Shown here: positions 565-64,000 of the stretch, one piece after another | Layout of the letters: every line of letters begins with the position of its first letter | How positions within the stretch are numbered: position 1 is the stretch's first letter | Source: a virus | Lineage: Duplodnaviria > Caudoviricetes | Reading direction: 5' to 3' (one strand) | Virus record (IMG/VR): IMGVR_UViG_2508501001_000004 | Location: 18,187 to 82,186 of that record | Length of the DNA: 64,000 bases | Made by a program: the position numbers and the translations under genes | Notes under the pieces: model-generated | Seen by the model: the letters and a program-made list of their open reading frames with translations, nothing else | Told to the model about the DNA's origin: nothing | Databases searched by the model: none

Positions 565-616
565 ATTATATTTGATAATTATATTATCGTCAAGATATTT
601 TGTTAATATAATTATC
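565..616. promoter_or_regulatory. cro promoter (minus strand) with two operators
   Basis: Minus strand TTGACG(593-588)-17 nt-TATAAT(570-565); operators at 574-588 and 602-616 (one mismatch). Confidence 0.7.
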
Positions 617-637
617 AAAAAGAAGGGACGTTGCTCC

Positions 638-1045
638 ATGATTGGTGAAATCCTTGCCGAATTAAGAAATAGAAGAGGGCTTACTCAAGACCAGATGGCT
701 GAGGCCCTAAATGTAAAAAGACCTCGCTACAATTCTTGGGAAAACAATATAGCTAAGCCAGACATAGAAATGCTCCAAAAGATAGCTAAATTTCATAATG
801 TTACACCCGACTATATTCTTAATTTTGAATCTGACAGCCCAGTCCCCTCCTGGGCCACTGCAAAAGATAAGCGCGATTTCAAGAAAATGCTCGAAGAAGA
901 CGATGACTTAATGTTTGATGGCATCCCTATCGAAAGCGATGACCGCCAGAGAATCAAAGACGTTCTCACCGGCCTTTTCTGGGAAGCCAAACAGATGAAC
1001 AAACGCAAAAAGAAACCTGACAGCACAAACGACACCAAGAAATAA
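638..1045 (+). CDS. XRE-family (CI/ImmR-like) repressor
   Basis: LTQDQMAEALNVKRPRYNSWENN HTH; C-terminal DLMFDGIPIESDDRQRI; ATG 638 preferred over track start 572. Confidence 0.85.
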   Translation: MIGEILAELRNRRGLTQDQMAEALNVKRPRYNSWENNIAKPDIEMLQKIAKFHNVTPDYILNFESDSPVPSWATAKDKRDFKKMLEEDDDLMFDGIPIESDDRQRIKDVLTGLFWEAKQMNKRKKKPDSTNDTKK

Positions 1046-1084
1046 ATCCTGGTGCCGTTTTTTATAAAGAGGTGCAACTAAAAA

Positions 1085-1504
1085 ATGGACAAACTTATAC
1101 ATACTTTAACCCGTAAGTATAAAACCAATAACCCCTTCACTATCGCTGAACATCTTGGAATTCATATTCGTTTTGCTGATCTGGGGGAGCACACTCGAGG
1201 TATTTATTATAGTAAGCTCAGACGTAGATTTATCGTAATTAATTCTAGGCTGAATTCTCATTGGCAGCGATTCATATGCGCCCACGAGCTGGCACACGAC
1301 AGACTTCACAGGGGTCTAAACCGCTTTTTCTTAGATAAATACTCCTTTTCAAACGCCAATAAGTACGAAAGACAGGCAAATCGATTCGCCGTTCAACTAA
1401 TTTTAATTAATACAAATATACATTCAGGTGAGACCATTGAAGACTTTTTTCTTAAAAATGGCGTTCCGACCGAGATGATTAAATACTATACAAGAAACTC
1501 TTAA
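1085..1504 (+). CDS. ImmA/IrrE-family metallopeptidase (antirepressor)
   Basis: RFICAHELAH (HEXXH) and YERQANRFA motifs; follows repressor. Confidence 0.9.
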   Translation: MDKLIHTLTRKYKTNNPFTIAEHLGIHIRFADLGEHTRGIYYSKLRRRFIVINSRLNSHWQRFICAHELAHDRLHRGLNRFFLDKYSFSNANKYERQANRFAVQLILINTNIHSGETIEDFFLKNGVPTEMIKYYTRNS

Positions 1505-3550: not shown

Positions 3551-4549
3551 TCATTCAGTAAGAGTAACTTGAATAGGTTCACTTTTAAGCTTAATACTTT
3601 GAGTTCTATTTTCATAAACTATAACTGCTTTATACTCGCCACTAGGAACACCGTCAAACCAAAAAGATGGCAGTTGTTCGGGAATCTCTGGATGATCAGT
3701 ATTGACCTTTAAAGTCGTACTATAAGAGCTGGTAGCTGATGTCAAGATCAAAGTTCGATCAATGTTCCCTTCTATGTCTGGTTGGACATATTGTAGTACA
3801 AAATTAGTTTTGGATACTATCGTGTTGTCTTGTGGAATCAATATTTCAGGAGACTTTACTGGGCTTTCGTCAATAGTCACATTGACCTTTGGCATATATT
3901 TTGGAACATTATAACCCGTTGATGGATCAAGTATATATACTGTAATTTCATAACGATGACCTATTATTAAATGACCCTTGGGTAATATGAAACTGTTTTT
4001 ATCGGCAGGCACATTAGCTGTATAATTGCGAAGATATGGCAGCGCTGTATCCCTGTCTGTAACATCTACAGTGTAACTCGTAGCACCCAGAACCGGAGTC
4101 CAGATTATTTCAATATCGCCATAAGGCAGTATAGCTCCATCTTTAGGATAAATGATACGTATAGATGGATCCGTTAAATAAATAGGATAGAGCTGAATTG
4201 CTTGACCAATCCTCAACCTTTGGGGATCAAGGCCTGGATTAGCAGCGATGAGCCCTGAAAGAGACGTGTTATTTGCGCGAGCTATTTTGTAAAATGTATC
4301 ACCCGGTTTGATAATGTAAATTTTATAGGCAGTACTCTGACGCTGTAGATACCCCCAGGTTATTGGCCCTACTATTCCATCGTGAACAAGTCCGTAGTCT
4401 TTTTGAAATTGGATTACTGCAGACGCTGTTTTTACTCCAAAAATCCCATCAGTTATCCCTGGATTATAGTTCAAGATACTTAAAGTGGACTGTAATTGAA
4501 TAACATCTTCTCCAGTCGATCCTATACGTAATATTCGCAACTCCATCAC
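3551..4549 (-). CDS. Peptidoglycan-binding (PG_binding_1) + LysM protein with fibronectin/Ig-like C-terminus
   Basis: LRIGSTGEDVIQLQ...DGIVGPITW; YIIKPGDTFYKIARANNTSLSGLIAANPGLDPQRLRIGQAI. Confidence 0.85.
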   Translation of the reverse strand: MMELRILRIGSTGEDVIQLQSTLSILNYNPGITDGIFGVKTASAVIQFQKDYGLVHDGIVGPITWGYLQRQSTAYKIYIIKPGDTFYKIARANNTSLSGLIAANPGLDPQRLRIGQAIQLYPIYLTDPSIRIIYPKDGAILPYGDIEIIWTPVLGATSYTVDVTDRDTALPYLRNYTANVPADKNSFILPKGHLIIGHRYEITVYILDPSTGYNVPKYMPKVNVTIDESPVKSPEILIPQDNTIVSKTNFVLQYVQPDIEGNIDRTLILTSATSSYSTTLKVNTDHPEIPEQLPSFWFDGVPSGEYKAVIVYENRTQSIKLKSEPIQVTLTE

Positions 4550-4911: not shown

Positions 4912-5010
4912 CCTTACACTATATAAAACCCTGCAATATAAGGCGATATTCAAGTAGGAAAATAAAGGATTTTAGACCTTCCCCTAGAATAAAGTTTCTA
5001 GGTGATGCGT

Positions 5011-5268
5011 ATGGATAGTAGTTTAAGAAAAAAGCCAAGAATTCAAAATAACCTTCGATATTACCGGGAAAAACTCGGAGTCACTCAAAAAGAGATGGAG
5101 TATCGAACTGGTGTCGGAAATCGTCACTGGCCCTCCTACGAAAATGGGACTCACGAGCCTAAGGTTTCATTGGCTCAGTGCATGGCGGCTGCATTTAATG
5201 ATATAGCCGCCGAAAAAGAAATTGAATTAAAAAGGTTAACAGTCGATGATCTGTACCCCCCTCAATAG
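5011..5268 (+). CDS. XRE helix-turn-helix protein
   Basis: NNLRYYREKLGVTQKEM...YENGTHEPKVSLA; RBS AGGTGA; terminator hairpin at about 5264-5296. Confidence 0.8.
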   Translation: MDSSLRKKPRIQNNLRYYREKLGVTQKEMEYRTGVGNRHWPSYENGTHEPKVSLAQCMAAAFNDIAAEKEIELKRLTVDDLYPPQ

Positions 5269-5335
5269 ACTTCCACAAAAAGGAAGTCTATTTTTTATGC
5301 CCTTATGGAATACATCGCGGTTTTTTGAGTATCAA

Positions 5336-5370
5336 TTACTAACTATTTAGTATTACTAAACATTTAGTAA
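5336..5370. promoter_or_regulatory. Tandem palindromic operators upstream of RHH gene
   Basis: TTACTAAC-TA-TTTAGTAT and TTACTAAA-CA-TTTAGTAA. Confidence 0.5.
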
Positions 5371-5383
5371 AGGAGCTGATCCC

Positions 5384-5596
5384 ATGGAGCAACTTAAAGT
5401 CACCAGTGTCTCCTTGACCCCCGACCAAATCACCTATACCAAGGGCAAAGGCAACACCAGCCGCTACATCCGCAGCCTCATTGACCGCGAGATGGGCAAC
5501 GAGCAAGCCGCAGAGCGGTGTCAGGCGCTGGTAAGGGCGTACCAGAGCATTATTGACCGACAAAAACAAAAAGAGTCCGGGGACCCGGACCGATGA
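5384..5596 (+). CDS. Ribbon-helix-helix (CopG/Arc-like) protein
   Basis: VTSVSLT beta-strand and NTSRYIRSLIDRE helix; RBS AAAGGAG. Confidence 0.6.
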   Translation: MEQLKVTSVSLTPDQITYTKGKGNTSRYIRSLIDREMGNEQAAERCQALVRAYQSIIDRQKQKESGDPDR

Positions 5597-5693
5597 GCGC
5601 AGACTTTGCCTATGTAAGTTTATCGTCTATAAACTTTATGCGACAGCTACCCCGAAATATGTCTACGAGCAAGCATAAAGGGAGGAAAATCAA

Positions 5694-6014
5694 ATGTTAA
5701 GATTAACCAGCCATTTTCGAAGGCATAAAACGCTCTGTATTCAGGTGGGAATTACGGCGGTCGTTATGTTCCTCTCCCCTACCGTTGCCCTCGCTTCAAG
5801 TGTTGATGACGGGGGAATGAAAATATACTGGAAGATCGTTAATGTAGGTAAATATGTGATTTTGGTTAAAGGTGCGGTTAACTCTATTCAGTCCGTTTTG
5901 GATGGGGATTACGAAAAAGCAAAGCACCAGTTTATAGGGTATCTTATATGTTTCGGAGCAATGCTTGCTCTCCCTGGAGCTTTAAATCAGATAGAGGAGT
6001 TGTTTAAGTCATGA
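5694..6014 (+). CDS. TrbC/VirB2 pilin-like membrane protein
   Basis: Signal-like segment ending VALA-S, then two hydrophobic segments; 106 aa; RBS GGGAGG. Confidence 0.55.
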   Translation: MLRLTSHFRRHKTLCIQVGITAVVMFLSPTVALASSVDDGGMKIYWKIVNVGKYVILVKGAVNSIQSVLDGDYEKAKHQFIGYLICFGAMLALPGALNQIEELFKS

Positions 6015-6640
6015 TTATTGCGGCTTTAAAGACCGGAGTTATTTTAGCAATTGTAACAATGGTTATGACGAAGCCGGTTTTATTCATGAGCTACATGCAT
6101 GTTATTGTTCTACTTGGCTGTACGTCGTTAATCGTTCTATACGTAGGAGGATTCAGGCCGGGTATCAGATGGGTCGGTATAACTTTAGTGGGATACATTC
6201 TGCTTCACATTTTCATTGATGTAAACGGCAACGGAGAGACTTTCGTCAAAGGGGAATATATTGCTCCTGTAATTGGTCCTGTATCCAGCCCTTACGGACC
6301 GCGTGCCTCTTCCCCTGACGGTTTTCATTACGGTATCGACTTCGCCGTTCCCGAAGGAACCAGAGTGCTTGCGAGTAAGCCTGGTACAATATGCTTTGCC
6401 GGGTATAAGGGAAATATCGTTGGGAACGTTGTAGAAATCAACCATCAAGACGGGGCGCAGACTATGTACGCGCATAACAGCCAGGTTTTAGTTTACGTAG
6501 GCCAATCCGTGCAACAAGGTGACGTAATAGCTTTAAGCGGTAACACAGGCCGTAGCACTGGACCACATGTGCATTTTGAAATAAGGCTGGATAACGGGAA
6601 AACCTCAGTAGATCCTGCACCTCACTTAAATTTACAGTAA
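6011..6640 (+). CDS. Membrane-anchored M23 peptidase
   Basis: N-terminal hydrophobic helices; HYGID, YAH and GNTGRSTGPHVHFE motifs; ATGA overlap with upstream gene. Confidence 0.9.
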   Translation: MIIAALKTGVILAIVTMVMTKPVLFMSYMHVIVLLGCTSLIVLYVGGFRPGIRWVGITLVGYILLHIFIDVNGNGETFVKGEYIAPVIGPVSSPYGPRASSPDGFHYGIDFAVPEGTRVLASKPGTICFAGYKGNIVGNVVEINHQDGAQTMYAHNSQVLVYVGQSVQQGDVIALSGNTGRSTGPHVHFEIRLDNGKTSVDPAPHLNLQ

Positions 6641-6652
6641 GGAGGCGACACA

Positions 6653-9010
6653 ATGAAGTCAATTAAACTTTGCGACTATATAGCAATCGTAAAGCCTTCC
6701 TACGTTTATTTAAAGCTTACACCTAATAACTCGATACGAAATAACACTTCCAATAATTTGGCAAAAACTATAGGCTCTCTTTACAAAACCTTTCATCAAA
6801 GCATAAAAATTGAACACAAAAAATTAATTAAATTATTCGGGAAGAAATTCGTCTTGGGTTCCAAGTATTCTTTAATACTAAACCCCAAAGTTAGCTATTA
6901 CATTTATATAGAAAAGAAACGGATCGAGTTTTACTTTATTGTTCCAGAGCAGTCTCAAAGCATTATTAAAGAAAAAATGACAGATTCCTGGAATAACGTA
7001 ACAGTCCAAGCTGTGAATGAACTTCCAGGCTTCAACGAAGACGTCACTACCTACCAATTAGACTACTCAAAAGAAGATGGTCTCAGTCTTGCCGTTGACA
7101 AACGCAGTAACAGTCTCTTAGAAAGTAACCTTAATATAGTAGACATCATGCATGAAGGCGATAAAGTGGGGATCTTTTATAACTTTATTCCTACATCCCA
7201 ACGAAGCTGGTTAAGTGAATATAAGGCTACCATCACTAAAGTACGCAAAGAGCAACCTGTAGATAAAAATAAGACTGGTATTATTTACTTATTTAAGCTG
7301 GCATTCTCCCTTTTATCGGGGCTTGTAGACGATGTCGGCGGGTTCCTTGGTGATGACAGCCGTCAAAAATACTTAGTTAGGTATGAAAAGAACAATGCCT
7401 CTATTCTAGAGCAAACATTACGTAGCGCAATTAATCATAAAGTAGTGTCTAATGCAACCGTAACTAAAGGCAAGCACATGGTACTAAATATTCAAGCTAT
7501 CGTACTGAGTGAAAGTAAGGACGACCTACACCAGCGAAATAACGCAATAGCTCTAGCCCAAAGCTACGACTGCATAGGTGAAGATAATAGCTTACGACAC
7601 CGAAAGTACAAAGGTAAATTCCATCACTTAGATACTAAGATTAAAGGGGCTGCTACGATGAAAGTAAGCGTTTACGAATGCGGCAACTTCTTGGCGCTCC
7701 CTGGACGTGAATTACTTGAAAAACACAAGTTTATTGAAAAGGTAGAGACATTAGAGACTGAGGTGCCGGACGAACTCCTAAAGGGAGTAATGTGCTTAGG
7801 CGAAAACACGTACAAAGGCTATACACAAAAGGTCTACATGAGTACAGATTTTGATTATCAAATGCTTTCGCTGGTACTCATCGGGCCTAACCGGGCAGGC
7901 AAATCGAAGTTCCTTGCAAACATAGCCCGGGATGCTATTGAGGCAGGAGAGTGCGTAATCATCCCCGACTACATCGGGAGCTGCCAGCTAAGTGAAGAAA
8001 TCGCAACAACCTTCCCAAGAGATAAAGTTCTGGAGATTAGGTGTGATCACTGGGATACGTTGCAAGGGCTTGGCTATAATGAGGTTCCACGAAGCACAAC
8101 CCATTTTATCCAGTACAAAAATGCTAAGGAGCAATCGGCTCTACTGATGACGCTCGTTGATAGCATTAATGCTGACGATGCAAACTTCACGGCTAAAATG
8201 GGGAGATATTTTGAAAGCGCGGCATTAGCGGTATTCCTGTCTAATGGTAATATAAAAGACGTATTCGCCACTCTAATTAATTACAAAGTCAGGAAGTCAT
8301 TTATAGACCGAATACCTGCAGAGCAAATGGAAAACATGGAAGAGTATATCGATTACCTACATGAGCTGGATAACGTTGAAAAAGGCAAGGTAGTTGGCAC
8401 CAAGATGCACTTAATTACCGGTGCTGTAGATAGGCTACAAAAGCTTAAGGTTAATGCTTATATCGAGACCATGCTTAAAAAAGGAACTGAGAATAATATT
8501 GATCTGGTTAAGGAAATGCAGAAAAACCAGCTTATAGTTATTAAGATGCCTCAGCGTATGTTTCTGACCGACAATGAGAAAGACGTTTATGTAACTTATT
8601 GGCTCACTAAGATATGGCTTGCCCTGCAGATCCGGGAAGAGCAGATTCAAGATAGACGCAAAATGACTAAGGTAAACTTAATTATCGATGAGCTCTACCA
8701 AGTGAACAATGCGGAGAAATTCCTCAAGCTGAAACTTAGCCAGCTCCCGAAGTTTAATCTTAAACCTATCATCAGCTGCCATTACCTCAACCAAGTTAAG
8801 ACTATCCGCGAAGAATTCAGGAGCGCCAATGCGTCATATATGCTCATCAGCGGATGTGATAAAAAGAATTATGATGAGTTGAAAAGCGAACTATACCCCT
8901 ATACGGAAGAAGACTTGTTAAGCCTTAAGCGCTTTCACAGCTTGAACCTGATGAAGTGCAATGAAGGATACGCGAAGTTCATAACTAGCTTACCGGCACC
9001 TATTTCTTAA
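6653..9010 (+). CDS. Large P-loop ATPase, HerA/FtsK/VirB4/VirD4 superfamily
   Basis: Walker A GPNRAGKS, Walker B LIIDE, downstream ISCHYLNQ motif; one central hydrophobic stretch. Confidence 0.75.
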   Translation: MKSIKLCDYIAIVKPSYVYLKLTPNNSIRNNTSNNLAKTIGSLYKTFHQSIKIEHKKLIKLFGKKFVLGSKYSLILNPKVSYYIYIEKKRIEFYFIVPEQSQSIIKEKMTDSWNNVTVQAVNELPGFNEDVTTYQLDYSKEDGLSLAVDKRSNSLLESNLNIVDIMHEGDKVGIFYNFIPTSQRSWLSEYKATITKVRKEQPVDKNKTGIIYLFKLAFSLLSGLVDDVGGFLGDDSRQKYLVRYEKNNASILEQTLRSAINHKVVSNATVTKGKHMVLNIQAIVLSESKDDLHQRNNAIALAQSYDCIGEDNSLRHRKYKGKFHHLDTKIKGAATMKVSVYECGNFLALPGRELLEKHKFIEKVETLETEVPDELLKGVMCLGENTYKGYTQKVYMSTDFDYQMLSLVLIGPNRAGKSKFLANIARDAIEAGECVIIPDYIGSCQLSEEIATTFPRDKVLEIRCDHWDTLQGLGYNEVPRSTTHFIQYKNAKEQSALLMTLVDSINADDANFTAKMGRYFESAALAVFLSNGNIKDVFATLINYKVRKSFIDRIPAEQMENMEEYIDYLHELDNVEKGKVVGTKMHLITGAVDRLQKLKVNAYIETMLKKGTENNIDLVKEMQKNQLIVIKMPQRMFLTDNEKDVYVTYWLTKIWLALQIREEQIQDRRKMTKVNLIIDELYQVNNAEKFLKLKLSQLPKFNLKPIISCHYLNQVKTIREEFRSANASYMLISGCDKKNYDELKSELYPYTEEDLLSLKRFHSLNLMKCNEGYAKFITSLPAPIS

Positions 9011-9111: not shown

Positions 9112-9142
9112 AAAGCGCCGGCTAATTGCCGGCGTCTTTTTT
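9112..9142. terminator. Bidirectional terminator
   Basis: AAAGCGCCGGC-taatt-GCCGGCGTCTTTTTT between convergent genes. Confidence 0.7.
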
Positions 9143-9149
9143 GCCGAGA

Positions 9150-9737
9150 TTAAAATTTCGGGAATTTCCCCTCATCAATAAGCCTTTGTCTTTGCTTAGC
9201 CATTTTGGCTGCTTCTCGCTTTTGCTTTTCCAAAAGCCCTTCTCTTTCCGCCTCGGCTTCCCTCCATGATATTAACTTAGGAATTGCCGCATAAATAAGG
9301 TTCTCTATAGATCCAAACTTTTTACCCGTAAATGGGCAAATATATTGCGTCTTTATGCCTATCTCGGCCAACTCTGCGCCCTTGGGGAAAAGATTACGTA
9401 TAAGATCATCCTTTACGTCAGCGATAACTCCCTGGGAAGGATCTAGACTGTGCACATAGATATAGTGGTCCCAGTCTCTCATTAGGTCTTGCATCGTGTA
9501 AACAATCCCGCTCCTCTCAACGGCTTTAGGAGATGGGTCTTTCTTCTTTTGAGCCTTAACCGGGGCCGGGTTCATTTTTTCCTGTATGGCCGCATTAACG
9601 AAGGCGTTAACGCTCAAGCCTTTCTTCTCGGCAAAAGCTTGGATTACTTCCTTTTCCCCTTTTTTCACAGTAAGGGGTATCCGATCATATGCCTTTTCGT
9701 TATACTTTCGATTTGCTTTAGTTCGCGCCGTGGGCAT
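9150..9737 (-). CDS. N-terminal ribbon-helix-helix regulator with unknown C-terminal domain
   Basis: YDRIPLTVKKGEKEVIQAFAEKKGLSVNAFVNAAIQEKM. Confidence 0.7.
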   Translation of the reverse strand: MPTARTKANRKYNEKAYDRIPLTVKKGEKEVIQAFAEKKGLSVNAFVNAAIQEKMNPAPVKAQKKKDPSPKAVERSGIVYTMQDLMRDWDHYIYVHSLDPSQGVIADVKDDLIRNLFPKGAELAEIGIKTQYICPFTGKKFGSIENLIYAAIPKLISWREAEAEREGLLEKQKREAAKMAKQRQRLIDEGKFPKF

Positions 9738-10328: not shown

Positions 10329-10470
10329 ATCCCGCTTCGAGCTGGCTTTGCAAAGTCAGCCTTGATATAGATTTTGATCTTTGTGGCCTAAATATTTATA
10401 CTTTCGGCAGGAATCTCCATAATTTAAGAGAAACTATACTAAAAATACAATATTTTGGGGGTTGTTCATA

Positions 10471-11388
10471 ATGGGGGAACAATTGCGGAAAGCGGCATAT
10501 AAGGGCGACGTTGTCATTGGTAATATTAGAATACCTTGCGCTGTGTTAGACAATGGGAAAAGAGTATTAAGCGAAACTGGTATAACCCATGCTATACTAG
10601 GAACGGCAAGCGGTGCATCAAGGCGACTAAAAAAAGAACACCAAGAAGCCGGGGCCCCTTTGCCCGTTTTTATAGCCCCTAAAAACCTGAAACCCTTTGT
10701 TGATAAGGCTTTAGATGTCGGGTCCCTTGATCCAATTTTATATTTAGACGGGAAAAGAACCGTCAGTGGTTACGATGCATCAATTCTTCCTACTGTATGT
10801 GATATTTGGCTTAATGCAAGAGAGGCAAATATATTACAGAAACAACAATTAGATAAGGCATTGAAAGCAGAAATTCTTATGAGGGGCCTTGCTCATACAG
10901 GTATAATAGCTTTGATTGACGAGGCTACTGGATATCAAGAAGTAAGAGAAAAAGATGCCCTTCAAAAATTGCTAGCCATTTACTTGACAGATGAAAGACT
11001 AAAATGGGCAAAAATGTTCCCAGATGAATATTATCGACAACTATTTAGATTGAGAAAATGGAATTATGATCCCCTTGATACACACAGACCGAGATTGGTT
11101 GGAAAATTGACTAATCAATTGGTATATGAAAAGCTGCCCCCCGGTGTTCTTGATGAGCTAAAGAAATTGAACCCCGTCAAAAATAAACAGTCAGGTAGAA
11201 GAGAAGCTACCCACCACCAACATCTTTCAACAGACATTGGACAAAAGGACTTACGTGACCATCTTATGCAGTTGATAGCTATCATGAGGATATCATCTTC
11301 GTGGGAAATATTTAAAAAGAATTTTCAAAAGGCTTTTCCTCCTTCAAGCGGAATACAGGAAGAATTATTTGAAGAAGAAGATCTATAA
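10471..11388 (+). CDS. P63C-domain protein
   Basis: IPCAVLDNGKRVLS, GLAHTGIIALIDEATGYQ, WAKMFPDEYYRQLFRL, HHQHLS motifs. Confidence 0.8.
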   Translation: MGEQLRKAAYKGDVVIGNIRIPCAVLDNGKRVLSETGITHAILGTASGASRRLKKEHQEAGAPLPVFIAPKNLKPFVDKALDVGSLDPILYLDGKRTVSGYDASILPTVCDIWLNAREANILQKQQLDKALKAEILMRGLAHTGIIALIDEATGYQEVREKDALQKLLAIYLTDERLKWAKMFPDEYYRQLFRLRKWNYDPLDTHRPRLVGKLTNQLVYEKLPPGVLDELKKLNPVKNKQSGRREATHHQHLSTDIGQKDLRDHLMQLIAIMRISSSWEIFKKNFQKAFPPSSGIQEELFEEEDL

Positions 11389-11990: not shown

Positions 11991-12995
11991 CTATTTATTG
12001 ATTATCTTACCTATATTCTTCATCTCTATAGATAAAGTTCCATCAGGATTATTAATGAACTCAATATAGTCCTTATTATGGAAGTAATCCGCTGGAAATG
12101 TTATTTCGATTCCCGTGTCAGTTTTAATCCTATGATTTTTTCCCTTTTTGATTGCAAAGGATCTATCTACCTTTACTGTCTCGGGAATGCCAGTATTTTT
12201 TACTTCTTTAATATATTCTTCTTGCATTATAGGAGAAGAGTTAAATACTTCTTTGCCTAATTCTGTCGTATCTAAGTATTCTGATACTTCCGCGTTTTCT
12301 ACTAAATAATTTTTAACCTTAGAGATAGCCGCAACACTGCTTTGTCCATGATTCTCTGATACCATGCGTGTAATGGAATGAAGCAAATCAATTGCGTTTT
12401 TAGGAGAAATAGTAGAGTTACATCCTAAAACTATATCGGATAGGATATAAGTATCCTTACCATCAATAAATCTTTTCTTGTCACAGAATCTAATATCTAG
12501 AGAGCTTACCTCAATAATGGCATATTCATCGATTTTTTGTGAAATATTTGGTAATATAGCATAATGATTGATGATTCCATTTTGTATTTTTCCCTCATTT
12601 TTAATTACTTGATGAGTAAACCCCACTTTATTATTACATTTTAATATTGCAATAAACCTTTTATCATCAATGTTCACGTCACAAACGATTAAATCTGCAG
12701 GTTCTAAAATATCTGATAGAGATATAGCGGAGTATACTAATTCTGCGGTATGAACAGAAAAACTAGTAAAGTCTATATTATCGGTAACGTATTCCGTAAG
12801 TTTTTTCTTGTAACTACTATCTGCATTAAAATTACCAGATTTTGAACCAGAATCGTTCATTATCTTTTCAATATGTTTCGTTAAGAAAGTAAGAACACTT
12901 TTACTCCCTATATCTAATTCCTGATCTGAAAATACCATTATACCGGACTTGAAATCCAGAATATGCAGAATAGCCTTATTTATTATCGTTATCAA
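11991..12995 (-). CDS. Nucleoid-associated protein (YejK/NdpA, 37-kD family-like)
   Basis: ITIINKAILHILD N-terminus; KNHRIKTDTGIEITFP...NPDGTLSIEMKNI C-terminus; TTG start overlapping upstream gene. Confidence 0.7.
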   Translation of the reverse strand: MITIINKAILHILDFKSGIMVFSDQELDIGSKSVLTFLTKHIEKIMNDSGSKSGNFNADSSYKKKLTEYVTDNIDFTSFSVHTAELVYSAISLSDILEPADLIVCDVNIDDKRFIAILKCNNKVGFTHQVIKNEGKIQNGIINHYAILPNISQKIDEYAIIEVSSLDIRFCDKKRFIDGKDTYILSDIVLGCNSTISPKNAIDLLHSITRMVSENHGQSSVAAISKVKNYLVENAEVSEYLDTTELGKEVFNSSPIMQEEYIKEVKNTGIPETVKVDRSFAIKKGKNHRIKTDTGIEITFPADYFHNKDYIEFINNPDGTLSIEMKNIGKIINK

Positions 12996-13623
12996 TATGT
13001 TCGCCTTCTCTTTCTTTTTTAAAGATAATCAAAAGCTTATAGGCAATACTCTCTCTAAACAATACTATTGTATTATATATAGCACTCTTTAGTTCGTAAA
13101 TAATTCGAAATATATACGTGAAGTAGATAATAAGTACCAGTACCGCCAAGCTATTATTAATTATATAATTACTAGTCAATACCCATTCATTGACTATACA
13201 ATTTAAGAACAGCAATATCACACCAGTTATACATAATCCTATAAAATACAGAAACAATACAGATTCATAATATTTAGTACTGATCATCAAAGATGATACA
13301 CCATCAGTTTTGAGTTTTGCTAGTTCCTTTATATATTTATCGCTCAAAAATGCCAATAAAATAGCATAGATAGTAAATAGGTATCCAAATATATAAAGCA
13401 ACACATTAAGAAGAACCCCTACTATAGCTAATAATATTTTTACCGTATTTTCATTAATCCCTATTATGGCAGCAAAAAAGACACCTAGAACAAAGCTAAT
13501 AACGAAAGCAATCCAATTATTTTTATCTGGAGTAATTTCTTTGAAGGCGTCTATTATCATCTTTTTTGCAGGTGTTTTTTCTGTAAATTCATTAATTGTC
13601 GCAAAATATTTTTCTTCGTTCAT
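12976..13623 (-). CDS. Four-transmembrane protein of unknown function
   Basis: Four long hydrophobic segments; ATG 13623 (track start 13656); AT-rich. Confidence 0.75.
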   Translation of the reverse strand: MNEEKYFATINEFTEKTPAKKMIIDAFKEITPDKNNWIAFVISFVLGVFFAAIIGINENTVKILLAIVGVLLNVLLYIFGYLFTIYAILLAFLSDKYIKELAKLKTDGVSSLMISTKYYESVLFLYFIGLCITGVILLFLNCIVNEWVLTSNYIINNSLAVLVLIIYFTYIFRIIYELKSAIYNTIVLFRESIAYKLLIIFKKEREGEHIDNDNK

Positions 13624-13660
13624 TAATTTACACCTGCTTTCTGTCGAAGAAATCACAATA

Positions 13661-14605
13661 TCACAATAATGAACGTAAGGCAGCTACATATCTTTTATAC
13701 CAAGCCTCGTTTTCCTTACTAACATTTTTTATTATTGATTCTTTTTGTGCAATTAAAACGAAATATTCATCATCATCGCTAGTTACATCTTTAGCGAAAG
13801 CAATTTTCTTGTTAGACGAAAAAGAATCTTCTCTAATTTTTTCATCCTCGCCGTCTTTATTCTTAACAAATAGTGTTGTTCTAGCTTGCCCAGAAGTCTC
13901 TTCTAATAATTTTTGAATTCCCTCTTTAGAGTCCGGGGAGTTAAATGTTAAATTAGTGGTATTTGAACCGAGACTTTTCATTTCTGCTCTAATTGAGTTT
14001 GCAATTGGTCGCTTACCAAAATCATTATTAAGTGGAAAAAAATTAAGTTTTACCCACTTAATTTTTTGAACACTTTTGAGTACAGCGTTAATGTCTTCTT
14101 TAAGTGGCATATCTACAATATTGACTAAGGCGTTCGGCAAAGTTGTAGTAGGCTTACGTTTATTTTCTCGTTGTTCCTTATTAGCTTCACGGGTATATTT
14201 ATTCAGAATATATCTTACTGTAGCTTGGAAGCTTCTAATATCGGGACTTACAGATTCATTTCGCACCAGAATCATGCGATGATTTTTTAAAAAAATAATA
14301 AATCTTGAGTAAGGAGCCGTTGGGTGCTTTGCCGGGGAAGCGGTTAACGCTCCATTCGTAACAGTTGTATGAATCGTATATTCAGTTTCTTTTATATAAT
14401 TTCCAACGAGTATATATTCCCCGCCTTTGATTTGCTTGATCTCAACATCAGTAAATAGAAAATGAGGGATTTCATCAACCTTTCCCCTCATGATACCAGA
14501 TGTAAAAGCAGGAAAAATGATGTCCTTGAAATGTGATAGCATTGGCTCTGCTTTTTCCCCAAAGGTAATATTGAAATTAGCCAAGTGCATTATCTTTTCG
14601 TTCAC
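13661..14605 (-). CDS. Hypothetical soluble protein, first gene of three-gene operon
   Basis: 314 aa, RBS AGGAGGAG, AT-rich; no motif recognised. Confidence 0.75.
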   Translation of the reverse strand: MNEKIMHLANFNITFGEKAEPMLSHFKDIIFPAFTSGIMRGKVDEIPHFLFTDVEIKQIKGGEYILVGNYIKETEYTIHTTVTNGALTASPAKHPTAPYSRFIIFLKNHRMILVRNESVSPDIRSFQATVRYILNKYTREANKEQRENKRKPTTTLPNALVNIVDMPLKEDINAVLKSVQKIKWVKLNFFPLNNDFGKRPIANSIRAEMKSLGSNTTNLTFNSPDSKEGIQKLLEETSGQARTTLFVKNKDGEDEKIREDSFSSNKKIAFAKDVTSDDDEYFVLIAQKESIIKNVSKENEAWYKRYVAALRSLL

Positions 14606-17675: not shown

Positions 17676-19090
17676 TGGCTTTTAACCTCCCACGACATAC
17701 TTGCTACATTGATTGTAGTGGTAGTACTCAGGTGAGTATTCACAAATTTGATGATTATAGAATTATTACTATTAATGTAACATTCGAGAATTTTTACTGT
17801 CGATGATCCATTAAACCCATACCCGTAATAGGAAACATATCCGCTGTCCATTTTTGATGATGCGCAACTGTTTGCGCCAGCCCCAGTAATGGAATAGCCA
17901 TCAAGGCTAGATCTATTAAAGGCAATCTCCATCCCTATATAGTTAGATCCTGATAGATAAACCCGCCCCGATTGCGCTTCCGGCATAACAGGGATTGTTA
18001 CAGTATACTCTTCTAAGGGTGCCATGGATTTGCTAAAACCCGAAAGACTACCCCTTTGAAATTTCGCAGCATTGCCTAACCTATTAGCGGGGACATTGCC
18101 GCTACTATCAAGGTCCGCAATACCATTTGCAACACCTTTTTGCGAGGATGGGATTGCAGCATTAGCCTTGTCCATGGCGACTTTTACTGCACTTGGAGTA
18201 GCTGCAAGAGTCGTGCTTGTGCTTGTTGTGCTACTCGATAATTGCACATGCCCTTTAGTGGTTAATGTCGCATCTTCCGCCAAATGCGCAACAAGGTCTG
18301 TCTGCGCGGCCCGGCTCGTATCGACTGGATGAACATGATCTGCCCTGGCATATCTCTTCGATGTCCCTGCAGTTGCCGTCCCGTCCATAACGGGGCTTGT
18401 CGAGGCTGCTTGATTTACAACAAAAGCCGTTGTGGCAACTTGAGTAGTTGATGTGTCAACTGCCGCCGTAGGAGCTGTGGGGGTGCCCGTTAATGCTGGG
18501 GAGGCCAATGGTGCCCTGGTTGTATCTGCAGGATGCCTGTGATCCTCTCTGGCATACTTTTTTGATGTCCCAACGGCAGCAGACCCATCCATGTTAGGCG
18601 TAACAGTCCCCGCTTGCCCGGTAACAAACGCTGTTGTAGCAATCTGGGTCGTGCTCGTATCCGCTGCCGCAGTGGGTGCAGTCGGAGTCCCAGTGAGCGC
18701 TGGCGATGCCAACGGGGCTCGGGTGGTATCGGTCGGGTGCACATGGTCTCTCCTGGCTGCAGTGGCCGCTGATCCTGCCGACGCCGTGCCGTTGGCCACT
18801 GGATTTGTGCTATCAAAGGCTAAATGGGCATGGTCGGCACGGGCAAGGCTTGTGCTGGATCCGGCGGCATTAGCCGTCCCCAATCCCCCCGAGGGTGCCG
18901 CCGTGGGAATAGGATCACTACCTCCGGGCCGGTGAGTATCAGCATGGGAACCTATTTCTCCCGCCGCATCCATCGCCTGTTTCAGCTTTTGATCAATCAC
19001 ATCGACATTGTCGTTAAAATCTTGAATGTTAACAATATCTGTACCGTCCGGTTTCTTAAGTCCATAATTTGCTGTTGTCTGCATGACCAT
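17672..19090 (-). CDS. Tail fibre protein
   Basis: TTANYGLKKP N-terminus; duplicated ~68-aa ASPALTGTPTAPTAA repeat; tail fibre repeat KGHVQLSSSTTSTS. Confidence 0.85.
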   Translation of the reverse strand: MVMQTTANYGLKKPDGTDIVNIQDFNDNVDVIDQKLKQAMDAAGEIGSHADTHRPGGSDPIPTAAPSGGLGTANAAGSSTSLARADHAHLAFDSTNPVANGTASAGSAATAARRDHVHPTDTTRAPLASPALTGTPTAPTAAADTSTTQIATTAFVTGQAGTVTPNMDGSAAVGTSKKYAREDHRHPADTTRAPLASPALTGTPTAPTAAVDTSTTQVATTAFVVNQAASTSPVMDGTATAGTSKRYARADHVHPVDTSRAAQTDLVAHLAEDATLTTKGHVQLSSSTTSTSTTLAATPSAVKVAMDKANAAIPSSQKGVANGIADLDSSGNVPANRLGNAAKFQRGSLSGFSKSMAPLEEYTVTIPVMPEAQSGRVYLSGSNYIGMEIAFNRSSLDGYSITGAGANSCASSKMDSGYVSYYGYGFNGSSTVKILECYINSNNSIIIKFVNTHLSTTTTINVASMSWEVKSQ

Positions 19091-57507: not shown

Positions 57508-58611
<1,104 letters not shown>

Positions 58612-58624
58612 ATCAATTTCCTCC

Positions 58625-58825
58625 TCACGCGATAATCCCAGTAGCAATAAATATCCTTCGAGCTTTTAGATAGCTCCGAAATGACCTGACCGAGCCGGCA
58701 AAACTATCCAGCCCAAGCTTGTCTGGTGCATCCCCACCGGATTGTGCTATACTATGTTCAAGTGTAATTTTTAGCTGGTCTGTCGGGCATTGCCGTGCCT
58801 GGCAGATTTTTTTGTTGGCTTGCAT
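58625..58825 (-). CDS. Possible small hypothetical protein
   Basis: 66 aa, TAAATG coupling; weak. Confidence 0.35.
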
Positions 58826-61270: not shown

Positions 61271-61460
61271 TCTCTCACCACCTTTATGGTTATTTTATAA
61301 CTAAAAGAGATAATAATCAAGCGTAATTATAACCAATAGTGATTAATCGGGAGCTATTTCCTCGAGAATGCTCTATATAGCTTTATTTATCTCGATATAT
61401 CACTAAAAGTTATATTGATATATTTATAACTATCGGTTATAGTTATAACCAGAGGTGATA
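61060..61460. promoter_or_regulatory. Six 17-bp operators, consensus TAT(A/C)AC-N5-GT(T/G)AT(A/T)
   Basis: 61060-76, 61296-312, 61328-44, 61398-414, 61425-41, 61444-60. Confidence 0.75.
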
Positions 61461-61463
61461 ATA

Positions 61464-61886
61464 ATGATCGGAAGCAGGCTAAAGGAACTCCGAGCCAAAA
61501 AGCAGATTACGCAAGAAGAGTTAGGTAAAATTGCCGGGGTGACTACTTCAATGATCGGCATGTATGAGATTGATGCAAGAAAACCAAGCTTTGAAGTAAT
61601 AGAAAAAATAGCTGATTATTTTAATGTTACCGTTGATTATATCTTGGGGAGGGAAAGTAGTGCTGAGAATGAAAAGTTAAAACCTCTTACCCCAAAAGAA
61701 GAAAAGGATATCGCTAAGGATCTAGAAAAAATGTTATCCAACCTAGAAAGTGAGGATTCTCTCGCTTTTATGGGTGAGCCTATGGATGATGAAACTAAAG
61801 AACTTATGAAAATATCTCTTGAAAACTCCATGCGCCTTGCAAAACAACTTGCAAAGAAAAAATTCACCCCGAAAAAGTATAAATGA
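61464..61886 (+). CDS. CI/ImmR-like repressor
   Basis: ITQEELGKIAGVTTSMIGMYE..RKPS; EKDIAKDLEKML. Confidence 0.9.
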   Translation: MIGSRLKELRAKKQITQEELGKIAGVTTSMIGMYEIDARKPSFEVIEKIADYFNVTVDYILGRESSAENEKLKPLTPKEEKDIAKDLEKMLSNLESEDSLAFMGEPMDDETKELMKISLENSMRLAKQLAKKKFTPKKYK

Positions 61887-61906
61887 CGCTTTGACGGAGG
61901 CTTTAC

Positions 61907-62371
61907 ATGGATATTAAAGAAAAAGTGGACAAGCTTACACGCAGATACCATACAAATGAGCCGTTTGAAATTGCTGAACGCAAAAATATCCCCATCATCA
62001 TCGAACCATTAGGCGATATCTGGGGGTATTGCCATAGTTACAAGCGAATGCAAATCATTCACCTTAACAGCGAATTGGATTATATTGATCAGCGTTTCAG
62101 CTGCGCTCATGAATTAGCACATATTATCCTTCACCCAAGGATTAATACTGGTTTCCTCCGGATGCATACCTTCTTTTCCGTCGAGCGAATCGAACGAGAG
62201 GCCAATTGCTTTGCGGTAGAATTACTTATACCAGACTCGATGATCAGATCCTATGAGCACATATCCCGATCCATCTATGAGATGGCCTCAATTTGCGGGG
62301 TGCCAGAGGAACTGGCAGATTTGAAAAAGATTGAGAATCAGCGCACTAAATTTTTTTACCCTTTTCCCTGA
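61907..62371 (+). CDS. ImmA/IrrE-family metallopeptidase
   Basis: RFSCAHELAHIILH; EREANCFAVELL. Confidence 0.9.
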   Translation: MDIKEKVDKLTRRYHTNEPFEIAERKNIPIIIEPLGDIWGYCHSYKRMQIIHLNSELDYIDQRFSCAHELAHIILHPRINTGFLRMHTFFSVERIEREANCFAVELLIPDSMIRSYEHISRSIYEMASICGVPEELADLKKIENQRTKFFYPFP

Positions 62372-62381
62372 ACATACGTTC
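62370..62381. promoter_or_regulatory. LexA (SOS) box upstream of integrase
   Basis: GAAC-ATAC-GTTC, 26 nt before integrase ATG. Confidence 0.7.
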
Positions 62382-62407
62382 TATTTATTGAGAAAGGAGG
62401 ATACATA

Positions 62408-64000
62408 ATGAAGAAAATTCGCATCCGCGCGGCACTCTACGCACGTTATAGCTCAGATAATCAACGTGAAGAATCTACCATAGCTCAACTTCGAGCAGGA
62501 CGGGAGCATGCTAAGAAAAAAGGCTATTTAATAGTTGCCGAATATAAGGATGAAGAAATAACCGGCAGATATGATCGACGGGATGATTTTCAAAAGATGA
62601 TTCGTGATGCAAAGCATGGTCTCTTTGATGTAATTATCATACACAAATTTAACCGTTTCGCTCGCAATAGGTATGACTCAGCCATATATAAGCGCATGTT
62701 AAAAAAGGCCGGAGTTCGCGTAGAAAGCGTACTACAGCCTTTAGATGATTCTCCTGAATCAATCTTATTAGAAGCTCTATTGGAAGGAATGGACGAGTAT
62801 TATAGCTTAGATCTTGCCCGAGAGGTCATGAAAGGCATGTTCGAAAATGCGGAGCAGGGAATACACACTGGAGGGAGACCTCCTTATGGACTAAAAGTCA
62901 ATCCAGATACTCATAAGTATGAAATTGATGAAACCAGATACAAAGCTGTCCAGATCTACTTTGAAGGACGAAAAGACGGGATATCGCGTAAAAACATTGC
63001 TGAAAAGCTTAATACTTTAGGGTATAGGACACAAACCGGGAAAAAGTTTACTAGGGACAGTTTTTATGGCTGGGATACTAATAGAAAATATAATGGTGAC
63101 TACGTATTTAATGTGGCTAGTTCTAAAGATGTCGATGGCCGACGTAATACCAGCAAAAAGAAACCCATTGAAGAACAGGTTATTAAAGAGGGAATCATCC
63201 CTAAAGTCCTCGACTCTAAACTTTTCGGGGAAGTGAATGAATTGATAAAGAAGAATAAATATAAGCCTGGCCGAATGAAGGCCAAAGTAAACTATTTACT
63301 TACAGGGAAAGTCTTCTGCGGAAAATGCGGAGCATCGTACAATGGGAACTCTTATCGAAATTCTAAAAGTAAAGAAAATACCCTCTTATGTTATTATAAG
63401 TGTTCTGGAAAATGCAAAAACCCAAGTATGCGGAAGGATGATCTTGAACACATAATAATTAACCAGCTCTCCGTTCATTGTTTCTCTAAAGAAGCTATGG
63501 ACAATATTGTCATAAGGGTCAAAGAACTTTATCAGGAGCGTAGAAAGGAAACTCAGGACGATATTGGTCCGATCAAGAAGGAGATAAAAGAACTTGAGTC
63601 TACTATTGAAAATTGGATGCAAGCATTAGGAAAAGGTATAAGGGGCCTTGAAGAAAGAATTGTAGAAGCTCAAAATAAAATTGATCTTTTCCATGAAGAA
63701 CTGGATCATATAAATATGCTTCAAAAAGAAACAGAAATAAACGATAAAATGATTTACGACTTATTAAAAGAAAAAAAGGATGCTCTCTATTCCGATGATG
63801 AAAACGAAAAGAAGAGCATCCTTCAAGAATATGTAGATAAGGTTATAGTTAACCCTTCAGATAATATCAACACCTTTGACCTAGAAATAACCTACAGGGT
63901 TTTTAATGGTGGAGGCGAGGGGACTTGCACCCCTGTATCGAAGAACGACCACAAAAGCGTCTACGCGTGTATCCTTTATTTTAAGTTTCGCCAGTCGTGA
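62408..64000 (+). CDS. Large serine recombinase (integrase); ORF crosses the att site
   Basis: YARYSSDNQ catalytic Ser, RFARN, GGRPPYG, YLLTGKVFCGKCG zinc ribbon, coiled coil. Confidence 0.95.
   Translation: MKKIRIRAALYARYSSDNQREESTIAQLRAGREHAKKKGYLIVAEYKDEEITGRYDRRDDFQKMIRDAKHGLFDVIIIHKFNRFARNRYDSAIYKRMLKKAGVRVESVLQPLDDSPESILLEALLEGMDEYYSLDLAREVMKGMFENAEQGIHTGGRPPYGLKVNPDTHKYEIDETRYKAVQIYFEGRKDGISRKNIAEKLNTLGYRTQTGKKFTRDSFYGWDTNRKYNGDYVFNVASSKDVDGRRNTSKKKPIEEQVIKEGIIPKVLDSKLFGEVNELIKKNKYKPGRMKAKVNYLLTGKVFCGKCGASYNGNSYRNSKSKENTLLCYYKCSGKCKNPSMRKDDLEHIIINQLSVHCFSKEAMDNIVIRVKELYQERRKETQDDIGPIKKEIKELESTIENWMQALGKGIRGLEERIVEAQNKIDLFHEELDHINMLQKETEINDKMIYDLLKEKKDALYSDDENEKKSILQEYVDKVIVNPSDNINTFDLEITYRVFNGGGEGTCTPVSKNDHKSVYACILYFKFRQS
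63907..63918. repeat. Right attachment-site core
   Basis: TGGTGGAGGCGA; equals the antisense of the tmRNA 3' end and integrase codons (N)GGG. Confidence 0.85.
63907..64000 (-). ncRNA. ssrA: tmRNA, 3' portion (5' part outside window)
   Basis: Minus strand ...GGATACACGCGTAGACGCTTTTGTGG...CAGGGGTGCAAGTCCCCTCGCCTCCACCA: T-arm, acceptor stem and CCA, with no anticodon arm upstream. Confidence 0.8.

Follow-up and report, generated by a model that had tools for sequence, protein, structure and literature searches.

Introduction

In phage SPP1 the C-terminus of gp32 resembles TrwB, VirB4 and FtsK, gp31.1 and gp31.2 are membrane proteins, and genes 31.2 and 32 are non-essential early genes for which a trans-membrane translocon of unknown role has been suggested (Godinho et al. 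2018, PMC6316719). A "DNA translocation operon" encoding relaxase-like gp27.3, ATPase gp27.4 and actin-like gp27.9 has been described in 0305phi8-36 and SPO1, and its deletion from 0305phi8-36 caused no growth defect and left plaque growth unaffected (Pathria et al. 2012, PMC3357382). Here we analyze a four-gene operon of this kind in a 64,000-nucleotide stretch of prophage DNA (IMG/VR virus record IMGVR_UViG_2508501001_000004, positions 18,187 to 82,186), hereafter the window, whose first letter is position 1. The module is already on record as a putative, uncharacterised translocon, having been noticed twice in genome papers. An earlier note on this DNA, made from the sequence alone, had recognised no named system of such composition; this claim is not supported, given the full-length homology to SPP1 gp31.1/gp31.2/gp32 (PMC6316719) and the relatives in SPO1 and 0305phi8-36 (PMC3357382).

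In our analysis the module would be the temperate-phage version of SPP1 gp31-gp31.1-gp31.2-gp32, a minimal machine drawn from the inner-membrane core of a type IV secretion system (T4SS) and transferring a macromolecule, probably DNA, a reading that we consider evenly poised between right and wrong. Below, the locus is compared with the described phage operons and with T4SSs, and the competing explanations are taken up with the evidence that bears on them.

Results and Discussion

The operon lies beyond the lysis cassette on the strand opposite to the late genes, in an accessory zone between the lysis genes and the integrase, and all four of its open reading frames (ORFs) are present where the earlier note had placed them. 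A 70-aa ribbon-helix-helix (RHH)-like protein of the SPP1 gp31 family (5384..5596, +) is followed by a 106-aa pilin-like protein, the counterpart of SPP1 gp31.1 (5694..6014, +), by a 209-aa fusion of a membrane hairpin and an M23 metallopeptidase, the counterpart of SPP1 gp31.2 (6011..6640, +), and by a 785-aa VirB4-like ATPase of the SPP1 gp32 family and phrog_5156 (6653..9010, +). The start of the M23 gene overlaps the stop of the pilin-like gene as ATGA, and the ATPase gene starts 12 nt after the M23 gene behind the ribosome-binding site AAGGAGG, while the RHH-like and pilin-like genes are 97 nt apart. The tight coupling once claimed for the operon holds at the first two of these junctions and fails at the third; the elements themselves, namely an RHH gene behind tandem palindromes, a 106-aa pilin-like protein, a membrane M23 peptidase and a 785-aa P-loop ATPase, were all confirmed. 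An intrinsic terminator at 9115..9135 (+; an 8-bp stem with 7 GC pairs, then a T-run) closes the operon. On the left it is bracketed by the terminator-like hairpin (5264-5292, +) of a separate transcription unit directly upstream, which encodes an 88-aa XRE-type helix-turn-helix (HTH) regulator (5002..5268, +; Pfam HTH_19/HTH_3, phrog_8). A megablast search of the region against phage records gave no match.

SPP1 genes 31/31.1/31.2/32 encode, in identical order, a small gp31-like protein, a leader-bearing membrane protein, a protein with two transmembrane (TM) segments and a TM-free ATPase of ~800 aa. The gp31 family is common to both phages, and in both the module lies downstream of the lysis genes. 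In hhalign, SPP1 gp32 matches the family profile of the window ATPase with probability 100 and E 5e-51 over 740 columns, at ~22% identity to the window ATPase. The window thus shows the two features that mark the SPP1 gp32/phrog_5156 module, full-length ATPase homology and gp31/gp31.1/gp31.2-like order. SPP1 differs in having neither an M23 domain nor a clear hairpin element between 31 and 31.1, and it is a virulent phage with an early operon, whereas the window module is a self-contained, separately regulated prophage operon. The operon of SPO1 and 0305phi8-36 (gp27.3-27.9; orf200-207) is more distant. SPO1 gp27.4 is a remote homolog of the window ATPase (tblastn E 6e-11 over 87% of its length), as is 0305phi8-36 orf201; it is preceded by small TM genes, the operon is non-essential under laboratory conditions, and SPO1 gp27.9 is an actin-like protein homologous to the actin-like protein (ALP) genes found beside many close relatives of the window module. 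These phages also have genes that were not detected in the window, a MobC-like relaxase/Rep gene in both (gp27.3, orf200) and one resembling VirB6 in 0305phi8-36; tblastn of SPO1 gp27.3 and gp27.9 against the window returned nothing.

Related loci were gathered with a 10-sequence alignment from species genomes, assemblies, IMG/VR and phage records, and their gene order was read with hidden Markov models (HMMs) made from the window genes. This gave 95 loci, or 65 clusters after dereplication at 90% ATPase identity. The ATPase family as a whole forms 449 clusters at 50% identity (E <= 0.001), all of similar length, with the closest relatives in Desulfitobacteriaceae, followed by Bacillus, Cytobacillus, Neobacillus and Paenibacillus. 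At ~90 of the 95 loci (59/65 clusters) the genes run pilin-like, 2-TM hairpin, ATPase; nearly all loci with sufficient upstream sequence show this order, and it recurs in SPP1, phiCp-D and TPDSL_ph2. Carriers belong to many unrelated lineages of sipho-, myo- and jumbo-phages, temperate as well as virulent, the latter including SPP1, SPO1 and CP-51. A pilin-like gene is present in 59/65 clusters and a gp31-like (RHH-like) gene, matched by its family HMM immediately 5' of the pilin-like gene, in 37/65. M23 occurs with the module in 33/65 clusters overall: at the N-terminus of the hairpin protein (M23-TM) in 24, at its C-terminus as in the window (TM-M23) in 5, and as a separate gene in 4. The hairpin protein stands without M23 in a further 24/65 clusters, and no hairpin protein was detected in 8/65. 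Judged from these counts, the conserved core is the pilin-like protein, the 2-TM hairpin and the ATPase, and M23 is a frequent, optional accretion; that it became linked by three independent routes (N-fusion, C-fusion, separate gene) argues that the hydrolase works with the machine. As a unit, the pilin, M23 and ATPase triad of the earlier note survives in this amended form, with the hairpin conserved and M23 optional.

Recurrent neighbours among the 95 loci are endolysin amidases (42 loci), serine/tyrosine integrases (32), XRE regulators (58), ALP actins (25) and TubZ (6); families of VirB6, VirB8, VirD4 or relaxases are not among them. The larger window ORFs, scanned with Pfam, likewise gave no relaxase, VirB6, VirB8 or VirD4, which bears out the earlier statement that the window holds no relaxase, VirB6 or VirB8. 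Of VirB6, VirB8, a coupling protein and a relaxase, the set whose co-occurrence denotes a complete T4SS, none was thus seen in the window or among the recurrent neighbour families of the 95 loci. Such T4SS-like proteins with the remainder of the T4SS missing would be expected of a decayed tra fragment of an integrative and conjugative element (ICE) or plasmid, trapped in the prophage and functionless. The ORFs are intact and translationally coupled, however, the catalytic residues are invariant, the same gene set and order recurs in 65 dereplicated phage/prophage clusters with no recurring tra family, the 449 family clusters are of similar length, and the module is single copy in its genome; we regard an ICE remnant as effectively excluded. 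The two outcomes that would have overturned the earlier proposal, homologs seated in ICE tra clusters or genes not conserved together, did not materialize at the 95 loci, where homologs sit in phages and the genes keep company.

The ATPase has a Walker A motif, GPNRAGKS, at residues 411-418 and a Walker B motif, LIIDE, at 676-680; G416, K417, D679 and E680 are invariant in 50 homologs. It matches phrog_5156 (unknown function) at E 1.5e-82, has no predicted TM segment, matches no curated VirB4 family (CagE_TrbE_VirB, AAA_10 and similar) in Pfam or NCBIfam, and gave nothing meaningful in a sequence search against the PDB. AlphaFold (AF2) models made from 50 homologs reached a pLDDT of 88 for the whole protein and 91 for residues 1-365. 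In these models the C-domain (364-785) superposes on the C-terminal domain of VirB4 (4ag5) with Z 27.1 and rmsd 3.6 over 335 aligned residues and is about equally like TrwB (1e9s, Z 27.1), DndH-C (Z 26.1) and HerA (Z 24), whereas FtsK scores well under VirB4, TrwB and HerA (Z 17.4 over 212 residues). For the N-domain, the top 13 Foldseek matches are all TrwK/VirB4 of R388. Alignment with residues 34-424 of TrwK/VirB4 (VIA-align) gives Z 14.3-15.4 and rmsd 3.3-3.6 over ~236 residues, with 7o42 as the best match (Z 15.4, rmsd 3.3, 236 residues) and the next unrelated family at Z 9.5. As modeled, the ATPase is VirB4-like in both domains, and since the N-domain is VirB4-specific and the C-domain is shared by the VirB4/TrwB class, we assign it to the VirB4 type and not to VirD4 or FtsK. 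Of the three kinds that the earlier note had grouped together, VirB4, VirD4 and FtsK, the first is retained. A VirD4/TraG coupling protein is ruled out by the VirB4-like N-domain and the lack of a TM segment, the TrwB likeness of the C-domain being common to VirB4, and an FtsK/SpoIIIE translocase by the low FtsK score, again together with the lack of a TM segment. The modeled VirB4-type N-domain of this phage ATPase is a new point.

The likeness of the C-domain to DndH-C, and to HerA of the SIR2-HerA and DUF4297-HerA complexes (Z ~20-24), raises the question of prophage defence or superinfection exclusion, in which a membrane-tethered HerA/VirB4-class ATPase with a wall hydrolase would sense or block incoming phage DNA or kill the infected cell. 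The location of the module fits, in an accessory zone between lysis genes and integrase, opposite in strand to the late genes and under its own regulators, as do a DndB-like protein, a reverse transcriptase and Gad1 among the neighbours of relatives and a weak match of the ATPase to PADLOC mad8 (E 1.6e-5). PADLOC returned no match at the system level, however, and nothing for the other module proteins; no effector (nuclease, SIR2 or similar) is linked, the N-domain is of VirB4 and not HerA type, and the module is kept as an early gene set in the strictly virulent SPP1, SPO1 and CP-51 groups (PMC6316719). The pilin-like subunit, moreover, has no obvious role in defence, and on balance we think this explanation unlikely, if still a serious one.

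Conjugation and type IV secretion have VirB4 as their signature ATPase, and comparison with the T4SS core formed by VirB2, VirB3 and VirB4 with VirB1 (R388 TrwL/TrwM/TrwK) extends beyond the ATPase; the Gram-positive counterparts are ConD/ConE/CwlT and PrgI/PrgJ/PrgK. The module shares with this core the order of small pilin-like protein, small TM protein and large ATPase, the N- and C-domain folds of VirB4, and the attachment of a membrane-anchored peptidoglycan hydrolase. It differs in lacking family membership at the sequence level as well as VirB6, VirB8, VirB10, VirD4 and relaxase, in having an M23 hydrolase instead of a lytic transglycosylase or NlpC/P60, and in being carried by a phage and not by a conjugative element. 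The T4SS-like composition put forward in the earlier note is upheld. A second point of comparison is archaeal Ced DNA import (CedA, CedA1, CedA2, CedB), which combines small membrane/pilin-like proteins with a single VirB4/HerA-class ATPase and moves DNA without a relaxase or coupling protein. This likeness is one of composition only, and Ced, apart from being archaeal, differs in its polytopic CedA channel protein and in having no wall hydrolase.

The 106-aa protein has a leader ending in VALAS/S, the stroke marking the predicted cleavage, and its mature part, ~70 aa long, contains hydrophobic helices at ~44-66 and 78-98, as read from sequence and hydropathy; leader and two-helix mature protein together give the VirB2/TrbC layout. 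A word-based homolog search had given 3 relatives, and the family was assembled from the related loci, in whose alignment (A4) the pilin-like pattern is conserved. There is no Pfam match at E <= 0.01 (PF04956 TrbC, T4SS_pilin); the ESM Atlas neighbours at a score of 0.90 include Bacillota clusters in which 17-31% of members carry PF04956 TrbC, which we take as a lead only. The 209-aa protein has three N-terminal hydrophobic helices followed by the M23 domain, the membrane hairpin occupying residues 1-75 and the metallopeptidase residues 95-209 (Pfam PF01551 Peptidase_M23, E 9e-34). With the catalytic motifs H106xxxD110, H154 and H186xH188 intact, as in M23 peptidases of the LytM type, the domain is predicted to be an active-type peptidoglycan endopeptidase on the outer end of the hairpin protein. 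Members of the 2-TM hairpin family (alignment A3) share a positively charged inter-helix loop with the motif G-x-x-x-G-x-(R/K)-(W/Y). No named family was found for the hairpin protein in Pfam or the ESM Atlas, and its likeness to VirB3/PrgI/TcpE is one of position and topology.

Two tandem copies of a perfect 16-bp palindrome, TACTAAnnnnTTAGTA, stand upstream of the RHH-like gene (5337-5352 and 5354-5369). The sequence has no further match in the whole 64 kb, 2 in all against 0.24 expected, and the copies overlap a promoter-like site, TTGAGT-N17-TAGTAT; the palindromes are a putative operator. One relative (L017) has different palindromes in the equivalent place together with an altered N-terminal strand in its RHH-like protein. 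No profile match for the 70-aa protein or its family was found in Pfam or PDB, and the putative RHH fold rests on the strand-helix-helix pattern of the family alignment (A7; consensus KSVSFN..DP...NFS.Y.KRLIQRDM).

The spacer between the RHH-like and pilin-like genes carries a second element, a hairpin/palindrome with conserved flanks, GCCTATGT (5604..5650). In the window it has an 8-bp stem, a 5-nt loop and a TATGCG flank and lies 44 nt before the pilin-like start codon; among relatives it lies 30-55 nt 5' of the pilin-like gene, with a stem of 7-11 bp and the conserved flanks GSCTAWGT and (A)TATGCG. Among 78 distinct upstream regions 34 carry the element, compared with 2.3 expected in shuffles, in the form of 24 distinct stems whose sequence differs between lineages while complementarity is kept. 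Paired cells make up 86.7% versus 60.9% after shuffling, double changes occur in 6/7 aligned pairs, and the covariation score is 0.479 versus 0.125 shuffled, with 0/500 shuffles equally high. No Rfam family was matched by the intergenic hairpin. It could be an RNA hairpin, a single-stranded DNA recognition site of the oriT/nic kind, or a co-evolving palindromic operator. The flanks were also considered as -35/-10 boxes of sigmaA or of a sporulation sigma factor, an assignment that we rejected because their spacing ranges from ~17 to 27 nt among relatives. This conserved, covarying hairpin upstream of the pilin gene is a new observation. On the minus strand it is bracketed by a promoter-like site, TTAACA-17-TATGCT (5700-5672), and by a terminator-like hairpin and T-run (5591-5574), so placed that an antisense RNA of ~100 nt could be made opposite the RHH/pilin spacer. 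Three relatives (L017, L018, L020) have a minus-strand terminator-like hairpin in the equivalent relative place.

The region 5' of the pilin-like gene also bears on a role in positioning or segregating the phage genome, in which the RHH-like protein would bind a site resembling a centromere, while the complex of the membrane ATPase, in many cases together with an actin-like or tubulin-like filament, would anchor or partition phage DNA at the membrane or pole. In 20/65 clusters the module is directly preceded by an ALP gene (PF17989) and then the RHH-like gene, a ParM/ParR-like layout, and SPO1 gp27.9 is likewise upstream in SPO1. At 6 loci of SPbeta-like elements a TubZ-like tubulin gene takes the ALP position. 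Examples of ALP/TubZ loci are L003:4778-5659, L005:800-1612, L007:6194-7009, L080:4356-5255 and L013:7858-8940. An ALP with a small adaptor is the layout of type II partition systems (ParM/ParR, AlfA/AlfB), phiCp-D has ParM and a replication gene nearby, and the tandem palindromes and conserved hairpin adjoin the RHH-like gene. Against this, most loci, the window included, are without a filament gene, an integrated prophage needs no partition system, and a secreted or processed pilin-like protein and an extracytoplasmic wall hydrolase would be needless for intracellular partition. We rate a partition role as improbable, with little to be expected of it.

By tblastn of phage records, SPO1 gp27.4 matched 146 records and SPP1 gp32 matched 107, and the hosts are Bacillus, Geobacillus, Lysinibacillus, Alicyclobacillus, Brevibacillus, Clostridium and Terrisporobacter, plus one "Microcystis" record. 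In the latter (MT362618.1, Microcystis phage MaeS) the identity of the homolog equals that of Basilisk-like Bacillus phages, and the host attribution looks doubtful. The SPO1 capsid, used as a control, matched 787 records, including 344 Staphylococcus, 69 Enterococcus, 55 Listeria and 27 Lactobacillus phages. In genomes of the window's own phylum the ATPase was found in 5/401, too few for an association test, for which reason the class around a Bacillus carrier was used: there it occurs in 24 of 401 genomes, 24/272 with SpoIVA and 0/129 without (Fisher p = 6e-5, uncorrected for relatedness). The window's own genome has SpoIVA, and the module in single copy. The module is restricted to phages and genomes of endospore-forming Bacillota, which is a new observation. 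That only phages of such hosts carry it points to a role in a host state outside standard laboratory lysis, in keeping with an accessory function that is dispensable for plaque growth.

One such role would be that of a phage device specific to endospore-forming hosts, delivering phage DNA into the forespore as a 'virospore' refuge. The earlier note had named forespore delivery among several proposed functions, the others being cell-to-cell DNA transfer, effector export and exclusion or defence. The restriction to spore formers lends the forespore idea some circumstantial weight, and it is compatible both with that restriction and with the recent interest in virospores (PMC12991052); all the same, we hold forespore delivery to be distinctly doubtful.

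If the module is indeed a minimal envelope translocator, it might work as follows. The hairpin protein would offer its conserved, positively charged cytoplasmic loop as the docking site of the ATPase hexamer, and the M23 domain would open the wall locally, like VirB1, CwlT and PrgK in conjugation. ATP hydrolysis would power extraction of the pilin-like subunit or its assembly into a short conduit, giving a macromolecule, most likely phage DNA, a way across the envelope. The RHH-like protein would act at the tandem palindromes to autoregulate the operon, and it may mark DNA as well. Several points weigh against such a translocator. The searches turned up neither a VirB6-like channel nor VirB8, a coupling protein or a relaxase, which leaves the origin of a conduit or of a DNA substrate unexplained, and VirB4 of canonical T4SSs powers assembly and not DNA pumping. 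No module protein matched a Pfam T4SS family, the only hit being PF10412 TrwB_AAD_bind at E 0.0084, below the cut-off, and the case for relating the small proteins to VirB2 and VirB3 by homology consists of their layout and position plus one weak Atlas lead. M23 is missing in about a third of relatives, and the peptidase of the M23-TM fusions lacks a signal peptide, which leaves its export route unexplained. The host-range association is confounded by phylogeny and not phylogenetically independent, and no transfer phenotype has ever been reported for the module in the literature.

Prophage Setting

A prophage of myovirus type fills the window, and the prophage context assumed in the earlier note is borne out by terminase, SPP1-type portal, sheath, tape measure, amidase and serine recombinase genes. 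The small and large terminase, SPP1-type portal, sheath, tape measure, tail fibre and amidase endolysin genes run from ~42.9 kb down to 15.2 kb on the minus strand, and replication and recombination genes occupy 44-57 kb of the window. At the right end (61455-64000, +) stand an ImmR/ImmA-like pair (XRE HTH and M78 peptidase) and, after it, a large serine recombinase that extends past the edge of the window. A second such pair, at 572-1504 (+), has no integrase after it; it could mark a second, decayed element or the other prophage boundary.

Directly left of the module a 332-aa protein (3551-4549, -), whose C-terminal half is unassigned, has PG_binding_1 and LysM domains and might serve as an additional protein of wall binding or lysis. 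A low-GC island (30% vs ~44%; 11991-14605, -) between the module and the lysis cassette has three genes, which encode a 334-aa NA37/YejK-like nucleoid-associated protein (Pfam E 5.6e-36) and two family-less proteins (226 and 314 aa); the island may be a separate accessory or defence cassette. Between this island and the module are a 195-aa protein (9150-9737, -) whose match to phrog_13890 is confined to its N-terminal 66 aa and a 308-aa P63C-domain protein (10462-11388, +; phrog_2384), which is anti-repressor-like. In the prophage early region a 379-aa pentapeptide-repeat protein is encoded at 57508-58647 (-; Pfam E 1.6e-81).

Conclusions

The cargo and timing of the module, if known, would add a step to the phage life cycle in Bacillus and Clostridium-type hosts, possible such steps being particle-free spread, spore entry and exclusion. 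Forespore delivery, if true, would be the first case of a virus using conjugation-type machinery to move material between compartments of one cell. A direct test is possible in the SPP1/B. subtilis system, in which the genes are dispensable, and the function of the module, if known, would define the smallest working T4SS-like apparatus.

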